64,000 bases of DNA. It comes from an uncultured Nitrososphaeraceae archaeon (lineage in GTDB: Archaea > Thermoproteota > Nitrososphaeria > Nitrososphaerales > Nitrososphaeraceae). Shown in pieces: positions 39,001-42,000 of the stretch (the stretch's first letter is position 1; each line of letters begins with the position of its first letter). Made by a program: the position numbers. The stretch covers positions 224,001-288,000 of the forward strand of contig CAVSMN010000012.1 in the NCBI GenBank assembly GCA_963729045.1, read 5' to 3'.

Positions 39001-42000
39001 TTATCTAGGGGAAAAGGTAGACGGATATCAAAATCGATGGCGGTCTACGATCCGATGATAACGGAGTTGGTTGCCGCCGCAGAATCATTGGGGTATCAAG
39101 TTGAAAAAGATCAGATTAATGATGGTGCAAGGTTTCCTAAAAGACCACACATCAAATCAGGGTATATTATGATATCTAAGAATGAATTACTGAAGAATAA
39201 GATATTAAAGGATATTGCTGAAAAAATAGTTCTAAATAGGACAAAATCAAAAGGCAGGTAGCTTGAAACTATTAGCAAATACATATTAAAAACATAAATA
39301 ATCAATAGTAGATAGAAAATATGTCTGATTTTTTACGACATGTTAAATAAATTAAGGAAATATATAATAAATTGACCCATGAAAAAACTGAAAAATTCAC
39401 TTTACGTGAAAGATCAATAGCCTTGAAAGAACCCAATGCAGTCATAAAAGGCGATAAAAGTAGTTCACCATTATCATCTCCAATAAATTTTGAAGAAAAA
39501 TTGGAATCTCAAGTAATGCAATCTATTCCAAAAGAGGCTCAGATAACAATAGTTAGGTGTGAATCCGCCAATATTGCCCTTTATACTAAGAATCCATCAT
39601 TCGCGTTAACAGAGTTAACTCTTCACCTGTCAGCCCTTTCAAAATCAATGAAGAAAAGATTCATAATTAGAACAGACCCATCTATAAGACTTTCAGAGGA
39701 TGATGCTCGTTATGCCATTAATAAAATATTGCCAAAGGAAATCCTGATAACTGTACTCTTTTGTGATGAAGCTACAGGCGAGGTCATTTTAGAGGTAAAC
39801 AATCCAGAGGGGATAACTTCAGAAATTTTTTTGCAAATTGCGAAGGAAACAGGCTGGATTGCACATACAAGGCGGTCTCCTCATATCCCTTCAAATAGCA
39901 TAAAAAATATACATTCCATACTGAAAAATTCCTCCAAAGAACGCATTACCTTTTATCAAAGTTTAGGGAAAAGAATTTTTAGACCTCCTTTGTTGTCCAA
40001 TTCTTTACTATATAATGGTGATACAAATGATGATATGAGGTTAACCTCTAATAATCACAACTCTAGATATTTATCAAGAAAATCGGTTGATGATGGGGCA
40101 ACATATCAATACAGTAATCTAAAAGAGGTCACAATTTACTGCTTAGGTGGTGTTAAACAAGTAGGACGATCATGTTTTATCGTTGTGACTCCAGAGAGTA
40201 AAATAATGCTTGATTGTGGTATTAATCCGGGAGAAAACATAAACTATAATGCCTATCCTAGACTAGATTGGTTTAATTTCAATTTAGAAGAATTAGATGC
40301 AGTTGTAATTAGTCATGCCCATATAGATCATCAAGGATTCTTACCGGCAATATTCAAGTATGGTTACAAGGGTCCGATTTATTGTACTGAACCCACTTTA
40401 CCTTTGATGACGCTATTGCAAATGGATTCGGTAAAGATTGCACAGAGCAATGGCTCGTATTTGCCTTATGAAATCAGAGACGTCAATGAGGTAATCAAAC
40501 ATTGTATTCCTCTTCCTTATGGAAAACCGACTGATATATCTCCAGATGTTACAATAACTTTAAATAACGCGGGACATATAATGGGTAGCGCTACAGTCCA
40601 TATAAATATTTCAGGGGCTCATAATATCCTATACACGGGTGATTATAAATACGCAAAAACGCAATTACTTGATGGAGCTTTGGCTAATTATCCACGAGTT
40701 GAGACTATTATCACTGAGAGTACCTATGGTGCAAGTTCAGATATAATGCCCGATCAATCTGTTGTTTATAATACATTTACGGACAGTATCAATCATACAT
40801 TAATGAGTGGTGGCAAGGTGCTTATACCTGTCCCTGCTGTAGGTAGGGCCCAGGAAATAATGTTAGTCCTAGATAAAGAGATGCGAGAAGGTCGATTGGT
40901 GGAATCTCCAATATTCATTGAAGGGATGATATCGGAGGCAAGTGCCATCCATATGTCTTACGCCCACTATCTGGGATATGAAGTGAGAAAATCTGTATCC
41001 GAAGGTATTAATCCATTTTTATCTTCTTACTTTACGGTCATAAATGGAATTGGCAAAAGAGAAGAAGTTTTTAACGATGATTCTCCTTCAATTATCATGG
41101 CAACTTCCGGAATGTTAGAAGGAGGACCGTCGGTTGAATATTTTAAGCAAATTTCTCCTAATCCTAAAAACAAAATAATTTTCGTGTCTTACCAAATAAA
41201 CGGCACCCTGGGACGTAGGGTGTTGGACGGTACTATATCTGAAGCTAGCATGATAGATAAGAATGGCAAGGTTAAAGTAATTCCAGTCAGATGCTCCAAA
41301 CAAAAAATTGACGGTTTTAGCGGTCACAGCGATTTTAATCAAATTCTAAACTTTGTTTCAAAAGTGAGACCCAAAAGGGTTTTGGTTAATCATGGGGAAA
41401 AATCTAAATCAGAGAATATTGCAAGTGTAATTTACTCCAGGATGAAAATAAGGTCTAGTGTCCCTGATAATAGGGAAATCATAAAGCTAAGGTAAATTGC
41501 GATAGGTTTTTTCGTATGTATGATGTTCATAATGTTGAACTGATTTGGCCATAAGATATAGATGTATTAATTGTAATATTGTGTTGAGCGGAGAGGGTGC
41601 CTCGCGACATTATTTAGCAAATCCTAATCATAAATTAGAAAAATTACCACCACCACCTAAACCGGGCAAGCCGACTACTTAAAAATCTGTAAGAGTAATT
41701 ATTCTCTTATACTTTCTAACGCTGATACAACTTGCCATAGGCTCGTCCTGATATGTGATTGCATTTGAGGATTTTGGGTGACACCGTCTAACATACTAAT
41801 AGCATTAGCAGCTCGCACTGATATACTTCCTCCTTTCTCATCCTTAAGAATGGCCAAGACCTCCCTTATCATATTCCTAATATTTCTTTGAATGTTTACG
41901 TTTTTTATTAGAGAATCTAATGTTGATATCGCATTATTTAGTCTCTCAATATTTTCTTTTTGTTTTAATTCTTTCTTTGTAACTGTCAATTTGAATCACA

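Follow-up and report, generated by a model that had tools for sequence, protein, structure and literature searches.

Two diverged copies of the transcription termination factor FttA (aCPSF1) in the Nitrososphaeraceae and a possible division of labour between them

Introduction

The termination factor FttA (aCPSF1) is treated as a universal archaeal protein, single-copy and vertically inherited, and its use as a taxonomic marker has been proposed. The Nitrososphaeraceae, an abundant family of archaea in soil, break this rule in all genomes sampled. The window analysed here, a stretch of 64,000 nucleotides from an uncultured member of this family, carries a full-length FttA gene (referred to as LONG) and a second one (SHORT) is located elsewhere in the same genome. 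The locus raises the question of where the extra copy came from and what a cell does with two. There are practical reasons for asking, because marker-based trees may take the wrong FttA copy in this family and the extra copy can pass for contamination. The TIGR03675 model used here to recognize the protein is presumably part of standard marker sets.

Dataset S1 of an earlier survey (PMC8653824) lists two aCPSF1 each for N. viennensis and N. evergladensis. Both are classified there as Nitrososphaera and are not filed under 'unclassified archaea', a possibility that the initial annotation of this locus had raised. In the survey's text, extra copies are credited only to haloarchaea and 'unclassified archaea'. 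What is already in print is limited to raw counts for two Nitrososphaera genomes.

Results

The LONG gene is an intact ORF of 707 aa at 39372..41495 on the forward strand, stop codon included. The candidate start codons are TTG at 39372, the next in-frame TTG at codon 18 and the next ATG at codon 48. The protein passes the equivalog cut-off of TIGR03675 as first annotated (710.2 bits against 580.2). It has Pfam matches to KH_TffA (41-106), Lactamase_B, Beta-Casp (493-616) and RMMBL (637-698), and its best PDB matches have E values of 1e-161 to 1e-148.

The SHORT gene was found by the genome search at G000:C7:69019-70863 on the reverse strand (590.5 bits with TIGR03675) and encodes 634 aa from a GTG, or 631 aa from an ATG three codons downstream. 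It matches the same Pfam families as LONG, and both proteins have two KH domains followed by metallo-beta-lactamase (MBL), beta-CASP and RMMBL parts, KH2 being recognized in each by alignment only, without a Pfam match. The two are 34% identical over 671 columns by BLASTP (E 3e-126), and 33-43% identical across the genomes of the family. SHORT proteins are 624-650 aa long across the family and many from other genera fall slightly below the TIGR03675 cut-off (536-579 bits against 580.2). A 420-aa protein in the same genome has the size and domain make-up of aCPSF2. Only one Spt5-NGN gene is present in this genome, and a second Spt5 as a possible dedicated partner was set aside.

LONG begins with an extension that is found only in this copy (aa 1-44; 39372..39503, forward strand). 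This segment, 29-85 aa in the 23 LONG proteins compared, is rich in E, K, S and N and hypervariable, and is therefore probably disordered. KH1 (aa ~41-110) and KH2 (aa ~111-175) lie at 39492..39896 on the same strand, as located by Pfam KH_TffA and alignment, and KH1 has an insert of 1 aa in the alignment. Among LONG proteins KH1 and KH2 are 70% and 65% identical, compared with 46% and 30% against the sister family f2. The GXXG loop is absent from KH2 of all class rows displayed in a 22-row alignment, including LONG and SHORT, and is present in the displayed phylum outgroup rows (KKPGLVIGKGG and variants). The missing loop is a trait of the whole class and not peculiar to LONG. A second LONG-specific segment, a hypervariable S/N-rich insert (aa 208-251; 39993..40124, forward strand) of 28-60 aa in the same 23 proteins, separates the KH region from the nuclease core. 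The long copy had been described as mostly matched only from model position ~130-173 on. This appearance is misleading because the insert splits the HMM alignment: the N-terminal part matches separately with 108.2 bits, and TIGR03675 aligns with the long copy from end to end in several genera.

The nuclease core starts with part a of the metallo-beta-lactamase domain (40125..40835, forward strand, as are the parts that follow), which includes motif 1 (D281), the HxHxDH motif (HAHIDH, aa 315-320, 40314-40331), H402, D424 and E449, all invariant in 37/37 LONG proteins. Next are the beta-CASP domain found by Pfam (40836..41231), in which LONG proteins from 14 genera share the same residue at 79 of 131 columns, and part b of the metallo-beta-lactamase domain (RMMBL; H652 and H674) with the C-terminal tail (41232..41492). 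The tail itself, IRSSVPDNREIIKLR (41448-41492), is near-invariant and is placed where aCPSF1 has its dimerisation tail. Tails are conserved within each copy and both end in E-x-I-K/R-L, LONG with VPDNREIIKLR and SHORT with HPLVQEAIKLL. A T6 run (41507..41512, forward strand) starts 12 nt past the LONG stop codon, in the gap between convergent genes, and on its sequence is a candidate U-tract terminator. The convergent gene, UPF0147 (41699..41989, reverse strand), also adjoins LONG in G001 and G011.

In order to count the copies we searched genomes with TIGR03675. At E<=1e-100 there were exactly two matches in 113 of the 121 family genomes that are at least 80% complete (16 genera), one in six and three in two. 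At E<=1e-60, 58 of 61 genomes (14 genera) gave three matches, two of aCPSF1 size and one of ~420 aa; the exceptions were G035 with two, and G052 and G045 with four each. Four of the genomes with one match at the stricter threshold (G052, G315, G300 and G295) have the other copy in pieces, by frameshift or contig ends, and SHORT was not found in G293 (95% complete) and G321 (83% complete). The exceptions within the family are mostly broken assemblies. Of the 140 genomes from other families of the class, 138 gave a single match, G080 gave two and G198 none. In the other classes of the phylum there was one match in 64 of 69, a second, weaker and KH-less match in four and none in one. Unpublished genomes enter these counts singly (G030 and G274 in the family, G151 in f2) and the conclusions do not depend on them. 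These data support the initial annotation in that two intact, full-length and diverged FttA genes are fixed throughout the Nitrososphaeraceae, with a single copy elsewhere in the class Nitrososphaeria.

The two genes differ in their surroundings. The run of genes next to LONG comprises an Rpb6-like gene (35701-36153, reverse strand), a cyclophilin-like gene (36220-36600, forward), S25e (36631-36948, reverse), TFIIB (36981-38042, reverse), a Gar1-like gene (38052-38393, reverse), PurS (38564-38878, forward) and SRP19 (38950-39261, forward), the Rpb6-like and Gar1-like assignments being below the Pfam cut-off. All seven are conserved neighbours of LONG in the family, and none of them flanks the single-copy FttA gene in the other families compared (f2, f3, f4, f5, f6, f9 and f10, with two outgroups). 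SepF, ThiI-like, Fe-ADH-like, FKBP and aminotransferase genes are neighbours common to SHORT (4/4 genomes examined) and the single-copy genes, and none of these five is beside LONG in the synteny comparison. Gene order and the trees described below agree in identifying SHORT as the orthologue, vertical and syntenic, of the FttA that sister families have in one copy. LONG is additional and occupies a new locus, conserved in the family, with TFIIB, S25e, SRP19 and the Rpb6- and Gar1-like genes alongside. Since a single vertical orthologue at the ancestral locus describes SHORT and not LONG, LONG is a paralogue or a xenologue.

Phylogenetic analysis groups SHORT with f2, f3 and f5. Support for this clade was 99 with 105 rows (PMSF quick), and 99.9/100 with 48 rows both under LG+F+G4 and in the PMSF full search; the clade was also recovered in a core-only tree (96.4) and a KH-only tree (99.9). 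LONG branches outside it, at a node with moderate support (87/83 under LG+F+G4 and 89.6/78 in the PMSF full search). AU tests (IQ-TREE, 48 rows) reject LONG as the sister of SHORT, with p-AU 1e-4 under LG+F+G4, where the constrained tree came from an unfinished search, and 0.007 under PMSF (C20). The split is therefore older than the family and predates its separation from f2/f3/f5. There are 20 diagnostic columns in which the state shared by f2 and f3/f5 differs from that of the class and phylum; LONG has the ancestral state in nine and the derived state in three, and SHORT the derived state in eight and the ancestral in three. Indels were each unique to a single clade and uninformative on branching order in the alignment. 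A simple duplication inside the family, as originally read, does not fit these results.

An alternative worth weighing is that the gene duplicated on the stem of the family and that LONG, whose own stem is accelerated, branches deeply only as an artefact of this. The LONG stem is long (0.54-0.70), and by raw bits LONG is closest to families of the same order (f5 686, f4 676, f3 675, f2 662; class 627, phylum 591). In addition, LONG falls among other long branches in the KH-only tree, and the AU test does not reject LONG as sister of SHORT+f2+f3+f5 (p-AU 0.07 and 0.097). However, long-branch attraction should pair the LONG and SHORT stems, and this is the pairing rejected under both LG+F+G4 and PMSF C20. 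SHORT+f2+f3+f5 is moreover present in every tree and both partitions, and LONG is mostly ancestral at the columns that define it. We consider a stem duplication unlikely.

The long branches that LONG joins in the KH-only tree are f7/f11. We read this grouping as long-branch attraction and have set aside an f7/f11 origin of LONG.

Among 1.84 billion representative proteins there was no lineage outside the family nearer to LONG. No donor was found either: P0002, P0003 and the other non-LONG representatives that matched best are nearer to outgroup rows than to LONG. LONG derives either from an old duplication, after which other lineages lost the copy, or from transfer from a near relative. Taken as a whole, we hold this evolutionary part of the explanation with considerable confidence.

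The two copies are under different constraint. LONG retains 10/10 catalytic residues (motifs 1-4 and A-C) in 37/37 proteins. In SHORT they are complete in 31/36 (11/14 genera); the zinc-binding Asp of motif 2 (HxHxDH) is replaced in the other 5/36, from three genera (g5, 2/2; g8, 1/1; g13, 2/4), and G008 additionally has TGE for TGD. A set of 76 single-copy rows defines 167 conserved columns. In LONG 89.2% of the cells in these columns are kept, with 15 columns fixed to a new residue and one variable, and in SHORT 75.9%, with five fixed and 29 variable. LONG proteins are more alike than SHORT proteins in 253/253 genome pairs. Over the same 11 genomes the LONG crown sums to a tree length of 2.16 and the SHORT crown to 7.40, so that SHORT evolves ~3.4x faster, and its rate is 3-5x that of orthologues in sister families. 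Despite this SHORT is under purifying selection, with dN/dS of 0.047-0.139 (10 pairs) against 0.023-0.071 for LONG (four pairs).

The constraint is also complementary along the proteins. Within-clade identity of the beta-CASP domain is 83.8% in LONG, 41.3% in SHORT and 89.7% in f2, whereas in KH1 it is SHORT that is closer to f2, with 63.0% identity against 46.0% for LONG, and SHORT KH1 is 65% conserved across genera. The nuclease core of LONG is near-invariant, equalling the only FttA of f2 in conservation, and its KH region is remodelled; SHORT has a canonical KH1 and a drifting beta-CASP domain. Contrary to the earlier view, LONG is the better conserved of the two copies, with remodelling confined to its KH region.

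Four soil metatranscriptome runs contain the words of the LONG stretch at a fraction of 0.41-0.55, the evidence coming from contigs, where DNA carry-over is possible and levels are not comparable. Contigs of the same runs also cover SHORT; those of X4 span 7033-8812 of L136, on which the gene lies at 7014-8909. Gaps in the contig coverage of SHORT in runs X1, X2 and X7 carry no evidential weight.

Discussion

In the Thermococcus FttA complex one protomer is described as cutting and the other as catalytically irrelevant, the latter making KH1/KH2 contacts to U-rich RNA and Spt5 KOW, and the asymmetry is likened by its authors to CPSF73/100 and INTS11/9 (PMC11616081). LONG is very conserved and SHORT is fast and sometimes without a catalytic residue, so the two jobs of the enzyme, cutting and RNA reading, may be split between two genes. 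We suggest that, with both copies present, the work of the FttA dimer would be divided between them. LONG, its catalytic core nearly frozen, would do the RNA cutting that drives termination, and would have had its KH region remodelled and gained two flexible segments. SHORT would have kept the canonical KH1 and the C-terminal dimerisation tail, its beta-CASP domain being allowed to drift. Because SHORT has lost the zinc-binding Asp in three genera and yet stays under selection, the job for which it is maintained would be binding, with U-rich RNA, Spt5/RNAP or a partner as the target, and not cutting, although the SHORT of most lineages probably still works as a nuclease.

The likeliest form of this arrangement would pair SHORT, as the non-cutting 'distal' protomer, with LONG in a mixed dimer that would correspond in archaea to CPSF73/CPSF100; alternatively SHORT might act as a separate dimer. 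Origin and division of labour together make up the best explanation that we can offer, to which we give somewhat less than an even chance. Its parts differ in strength. LONG is rather likely to be the main nuclease. A LONG-SHORT heterodimer is a tentative proposal, with circumstantial support from the complementary constraint and the natural loss of the catalytic Asp in SHORT. It is similarly speculative that the asymmetry of the FttA dimer has been hard-wired into two genes as an obligate heterodimer, LONG being the cutting, RNAP-proximal protomer and SHORT the KH-centred, largely non-catalytic, distal one.

LONG has constrained KH domains of its own and an invariant tail that differs from that of SHORT, and these would also fit a LONG homodimer. 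There could then be two separate homodimers and no mixed dimer, LONG as the general termination factor and SHORT as a nuclease or RNA-binding factor that is specialized or condition-specific and has other targets. The complete set of catalytic residues in 31/36 SHORT is consistent with this, as is a conserved tail peculiar to each copy, and the fast-evolving beta-CASP lid of SHORT could mean a changed substrate range. However, a SHORT homodimer lacking the motif-2 Asp would have no active site, and these proteins are still under purifying selection (dN/dS 0.12 for the pair G013-G025). Nor do two homodimers predict that the core is kept in one copy and the canonical KH1 in the other. We regard them as possible, if doubtful.

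The roles might also be reversed, with SHORT still the general termination factor and LONG engaged in new RNA processing, e.g. of rRNA, snoRNP or SRP RNAs. In favour of this, SHORT has the ancestral locus and the canonical, U-tract-reading KH1, and LONG has 15 fixed replacements, a remodelled KH region and new neighbours (S25e, Gar1-like and SRP19) that might hint at such RNAs. Against this, an essential general factor is unlikely to evolve so much faster than both its paralogue and its sister-family orthologues, and the LONG core equals the only FttA of f2 in conservation. Loss of the catalytic Asp would be unexpected too, since termination is reported to require the nuclease activity of aCPSF1 (PMC7515710). 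This makes a reversal improbable. Finally, that SHORT is redundant and heading for loss might be read from its relaxed constraint and the Asp lost in three genera, but is already contradicted by the selection data, namely its dN/dS range, its conserved KH1 and an intact frame in nearly all of 121 genomes from 16 genera, and is very improbable indeed.

The division of labour that we favour would make LONG and SHORT a natural experiment on cutting versus U-tract reading, the two roles in the FttA dimer structure, and the pair could reveal the way in which catalytic/pseudo-catalytic beta-CASP pairs like those of eukaryotes come about. Named Nitrososphaera species have both genes (Dataset S1, PMC8653824), so the proteins are directly testable.

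An M. maripaludis strain depleted of aCPSF1 is reported to have been complemented with the Cenarchaeum orthologue (PMC7515710). Both copies resemble canonical aCPSF1/FttA (TIGR03675, arCOG00543; PDB 2ycb, 3af5, 2xr1 and 9bct; M. maripaludis and T. kodakarensis) in their KH1-KH2-MBL-beta-CASP-MBL order and C-terminal tail, and LONG has all the catalytic motifs. The canonical factor is one gene and a homodimer, whereas this family has two fixed paralogues, and LONG departs from it in not being the vertical orthologue and in its N-terminal extension, the 28-60-aa insert before the core and the remodelled KH region. Haloarchaea also have more than one aCPSF1 in some genomes, but these duplicates are reported as 60-100% identical and from 56/366 haloarchaeal genomes (PMC8653824), in contrast with 33-43% identity and essentially every genome here. 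The aCPSF1b of Methanococcales is likewise described as a lineage-restricted extra paralogue close to aCPSF1, but without the KH extension (PMC3553952); KH_TffA in both LONG and SHORT rules out that either is aCPSF1b.

There are also paralogous beta-CASP pairs outside the archaea. In bacterial RNase J1/J2 the J2 partner is weakly active. This pair, said to act as a heterodimer (PMC8501993), belongs to another subfamily, has no KH domains and serves RNA decay instead of factor-dependent termination. There is also a likeness to CPSF73/CPSF100 and INTS11/INTS9, in which one paralogue cuts and the other does not, as in the proximal and distal FttA protomers (PMC11616081); on the archaeal side LONG is frozen and SHORT drifts and sometimes (5/36) loses a metal ligand. 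The eukaryotic partners dimerise via added C-terminal domains and the site of the inactive partner is lost throughout, whereas the SHORT site is kept in 31/36 and both archaeal copies have KH domains. If LONG and SHORT do form a heterodimer, it may, as a conjecture, have arisen independently of and in parallel to the eukaryotic pairs, and would represent an intermediate stage in which the helper mostly keeps its metal site.

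Two aCPSF1/FttA genes in one genome

The window carries an open reading frame for aCPSF1/FttA at 39372..41495 on the + strand (707 codons, TTG start), here called LONG. This start is a candidate only, with an in-frame TTG at codon 18 and an ATG at codon 48 as downstream alternatives, and a T6 run starts 12 nt past the stop codon. LONG scores 710.2 bits, in two stretches, on the NCBIfam aCPSF1 equivalog TIGR03675 (cut-off 580.2) and contains the Pfam domains KH_TffA (41-106), Lactamase_B, Beta-Casp (493-616) and RMMBL (637-698). Its nearest solved structures are archaeal aCPSF1/FttA (2ycb, 3af5, 2xr1 and 9bct; E 1e-161 to 1e-148), and INTS11 and CPSF73 come next after the archaeal entries. 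Contig 7 of the same genome (G000) holds a second full-length gene, SHORT, of 634 aa (GTG start) or 631 aa (ATG start), which scores 590.5 bits on TIGR03675 and is 34% identical to LONG over 671 columns. A third protein of this genome, of 420 aa, has the size of aCPSF2.

Elsewhere in the window, arginyl-tRNA synthetase is divided between two ORFs in different frames, 45883-46833 (-) and 46872-47888 (-), one N-terminal and catalytic and one with the DALR anticodon-binding domain. In the related genome G001 it is a single 665-aa ORF; the division may come from a frameshift or a sequencing error, or may be genuine.

Distribution of the two copies

The initial annotation described two diverged copies, from an old duplication, fixed throughout Nitrososphaeraceae. 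The two-copy observation is real: in a search at E<=1e-100 of 121 genomes of the window's family (f1), at least 80% complete and from 16 genera, 113 yielded exactly two matches, six yielded one and two yielded three, and a single match is the rule in the rest of the class (138 of 140 genomes). Three unpublished genomes, G030, G274 and G151, are included and add one genome each to the counts.

Four of the six one-match genomes hold the other copy in pieces. Contig ends cut the copies in G315 and G300, both copies of G295 have many frame breaks, and in G052, from the window's own genus, LONG is frameshifted into three pieces with one TGA (G052:C4:69517-71518), which is either a real pseudogene or an assembly error. 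SHORT was not found in G293 (95% complete) or G321 (83% complete). The third copy in G045 looks like contamination, because its frame and match pattern are those of LONG from another genus, g4. Of the two remaining genomes of the class, G198 has no match and G080 (family f10) has two full-length, closely related copies (G080:C72:1893-3773 and G080:C25:947-2824; L104 and L105) that both nest within f10 in the tree, and stem either from a recent duplication or from a bin that mixes two strains.

For 69 genomes from the phylum's other classes, the search gave a single match in 64, none in one, and an extra, weaker match without KH domains in four. These four genomes, of family f17, encode the second match at G205:C1:1338662-1339990, G212:C1:889545-890876, G240:C145:5669-6997 and G233:C1:31837-33177 (frames of 516-520 aa, 338-345 bits, model positions ~172-630). 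This is a further lineage-restricted aCPSF1-like paralogue.

SHORT is the orthologue and LONG the added copy

Phylogenies were built from 105 rows x 637 columns (IQ-TREE quick, LG+C20+F+G4 by PMSF), from 48 rows x 640 columns (LG+F+G4, SH-aLRT and UFBoot), from the same 48 rows by PMSF with a full search, and from the KH region and nuclease core separately. An outgroup row of the phylum served as the root in each case, so that the root is imposed and not inferred. In every tree SHORT joins the single-copy genes (the one FttA gene of families other than f1) of the same-order families f2, f3 and f5, with support of 99 (105 rows), 99.9/100 (LG+F+G4), 99.9/100 (PMSF), 96.4 (core) and 99.9 (KH). 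The LONG rows are monophyletic, with a long stem (0.54-0.70). They fall outside the clade of SHORT, f2, f3 and f5, as sister to nearly all remaining class rows, and support for their exclusion is moderate (85; 87/83; 89.6/78).

We moved the LONG clade to alternative positions and applied AU tests under LG+F+G4 and PMSF. Positions as sister to f2 or to f3+f5 are rejected, and so is LONG as sister to SHORT (delta lnL 40.9, p 1e-4 under LG+F+G4; delta lnL 32.6, p 0.007 under PMSF). The last rejection is conservative because long-branch attraction should pull two long stems together. The tests do not reject LONG as sister to SHORT+f2+f3+f5 (p 0.07 and 0.097), to the whole order (p 0.20 and 0.23) and to f4 (p 0.35 and 0.26). 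The deep branching itself could be an artefact in which the accelerated stem pulls LONG downwards. Of 20 columns in which f2 agrees with f3/f5 but differs from the class and phylum rows (a stricter set was also examined), LONG has the ancestral state at nine and the derived at three, and SHORT the derived at eight and the ancestral at three.

Gene order points the same way as the trees. The single-copy gene in f2, f3, f4, f5, f6, f9, f10 and two outgroups is flanked on one side by a set with an Fe-ADH-like gene, proteasome subunit, FKBP and aminotransferase genes, and on the other by a set with SepF, a ThiI/NFACT-R gene and PUA and LSM genes. SHORT retains parts of both sets in the four genomes G000, G001, G011 and G060. 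The proteasome-subunit gene, which directly adjoins single-copy FttA in f2, f3, f4, f5, f6, f7, f9, f10 and one outgroup, is missing from 16 kb around SHORT in these genomes (loci L136, L138, L140 and L142). None of the flanking genes is in the LONG neighbourhood, where the neighbours shared across f1 are TFIIB, S25e, SRP19, a cyclophilin-like gene, weak Rpb6-like and Gar1-like genes and UPF0147. Since SHORT keeps ancestral neighbours and LONG none, and the trees agree, SHORT is the orthologue by both phylogeny and position, and LONG is the copy that was added. The evolutionary reading in the initial annotation is thus corrected and sharpened: the two diverged copies stand, but a sister relation of LONG and SHORT is rejected.

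In a collection of 1.84 billion representative proteins, LONG falls into a single 50% cluster, apart from fragments. No donor lineage for LONG is visible among these proteins, because the next matches after this cluster sit nearer the outgroup rows than LONG. Six representatives (P0002, P0003, P0011, P0016, P0017 and P0022) are 1030-1220 aa long with three match stretches, a pattern that would fit inteins within the gene, and are closer to outgroup rows than to LONG.

Unequal constraint on the two copies

In an alignment of 143 frames (37 LONG, 30 SHORT and 76 single-copy), all ten catalytic residues are intact in 37/37 LONG and 76/76 single-copy rows. The HxHxDH Asp is replaced in five of 36 SHORT copies, from three of 14 genera: both g5 genomes (G005 and G018), two of the four from g13 (G025 and G035) and G008 of g8, where TGD is also changed to TGE. 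Two of the changes each occur in two genomes, so those are not read errors. In single-copy rows, 167 columns reach at least 90% conservation. Across these columns LONG retains 89.2% of cells, 15 columns having become fixed for a different residue and one being variable; SHORT retains 75.9%, with five columns fixed and 29 variable. LONG is more alike than SHORT in 253/253 pairs from 23 genomes (means 76.5% versus 52.3%), and its crown tree is shorter (length 2.16, versus 7.40 for SHORT in a matched set of 11 genomes). The mean tip distance from the shared node is 1.37 for SHORT, 0.41 for f2 and 0.28 for f3+f5. Purifying selection acts on both copies (NG86 dN/dS 0.023-0.071 for LONG in four pairs with unsaturated dS; 0.047-0.139 for SHORT in ten pairs).

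The relaxation of SHORT differs by domain. With one genome per genus (14 genera), within-clade identity in beta-CASP is 83.8% for LONG, 41.3% for SHORT and 89.7% for f2, and 79, 7 and 102 of 131 columns, respectively, are invariant. KH1 shows within-clade identities of 70.0% (LONG) and 65.0% (SHORT), and SHORT KH1 is closer to f2 (63.0% versus 46.0% for LONG). Two hypervariable, S/N/E/K-rich segments occur only in LONG: an extension of 29-85 aa at the N-terminus and an insert of 28-60 aa that separates KH region and core. The C-terminal tail is conserved in each copy, with sequences that differ between them.

The three displayed outgroup rows of the phylum (L106, L109 and L112) have a KH2 GXXG loop (KKPGLVIGKGG and variants; LONG aa ~140-150). 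The loop is absent from every class row displayed, for both copies and the single-copy genes (L048, L036, L090, L093-L095 and L099). The U-tract-reading KH2 may work differently class-wide. Single-copy frames of f3 are 676-691 aa (L090, L091 and L092; G137, G181 and G153), and the extra length of L090 is an acidic, Ser/Gln-rich insertion of ~40 aa in the KH2 loop, unrelated to the LONG insert.

Presence in RNA libraries

Part of the LONG stretch is present in 20 sequencing runs (14 studies), and 12 of the runs are recorded as RNA. Four soil metatranscriptomes contain 0.41-0.55 of the sampled words of LONG, and contigs of these four runs partly cover SHORT (in run X4, L136 7033-8812, with the gene at 7014-8909), but because the data are contigs the signal may include DNA carry-over and the levels of LONG and SHORT are not comparable.

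A possible division of roles, and known systems

PMC7515710 reports that a nuclease-dead H243A/H246A mutant fails to restore termination and that the Cenarchaeum orthologue complements. PMC11616081 describes an asymmetric FttA dimer in the Thermococcus pre-termination complex, in which the proximal protomer is the cutter and the distal one is catalytically irrelevant, its KH1/KH2 contacting U-rich RNA and the Spt5 KOW; the authors liken this asymmetry to CPSF73/CPSF100 and INTS11/INTS9. We favour LONG, with its frozen core and remodelled KH region, as the probable main cutting enzyme and SHORT, with canonical KH1, drifting beta-CASP and occasional metal-ligand loss, as a binding-centred helper, because the pattern of constraint matches the expected split of protomer roles; the two would possibly act in a mixed dimer. 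Separate homodimers stay a serious rival, because the metal site of SHORT is retained in 31/36 copies and constraint also acts on the KH domains and tail of LONG itself. A functional split between the copies is plausible but unproven.

Literature searches on aCPSF1/FttA, CPSF and beta-CASP in Thaumarchaeota/Nitrososphaera, on aCPSF1 paralogues and on TIGR03675 found no paper that discusses two f1 copies. PMC8653824 gives one aCPSF1 copy in 95.4% of genomes, and the exceptions it lists are haloarchaea and 'unclassified archaea'; its Dataset S1 has two aCPSF1 each for N. viennensis and N. evergladensis, which agrees with the name Nitrososphaeraceae that the initial annotation gives f1. The known aCPSF1b, as described in PMC3553952, is without KH domains and found in Methanococcales only. 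The LONG and SHORT pair is new variation within the known aCPSF1/FttA family.
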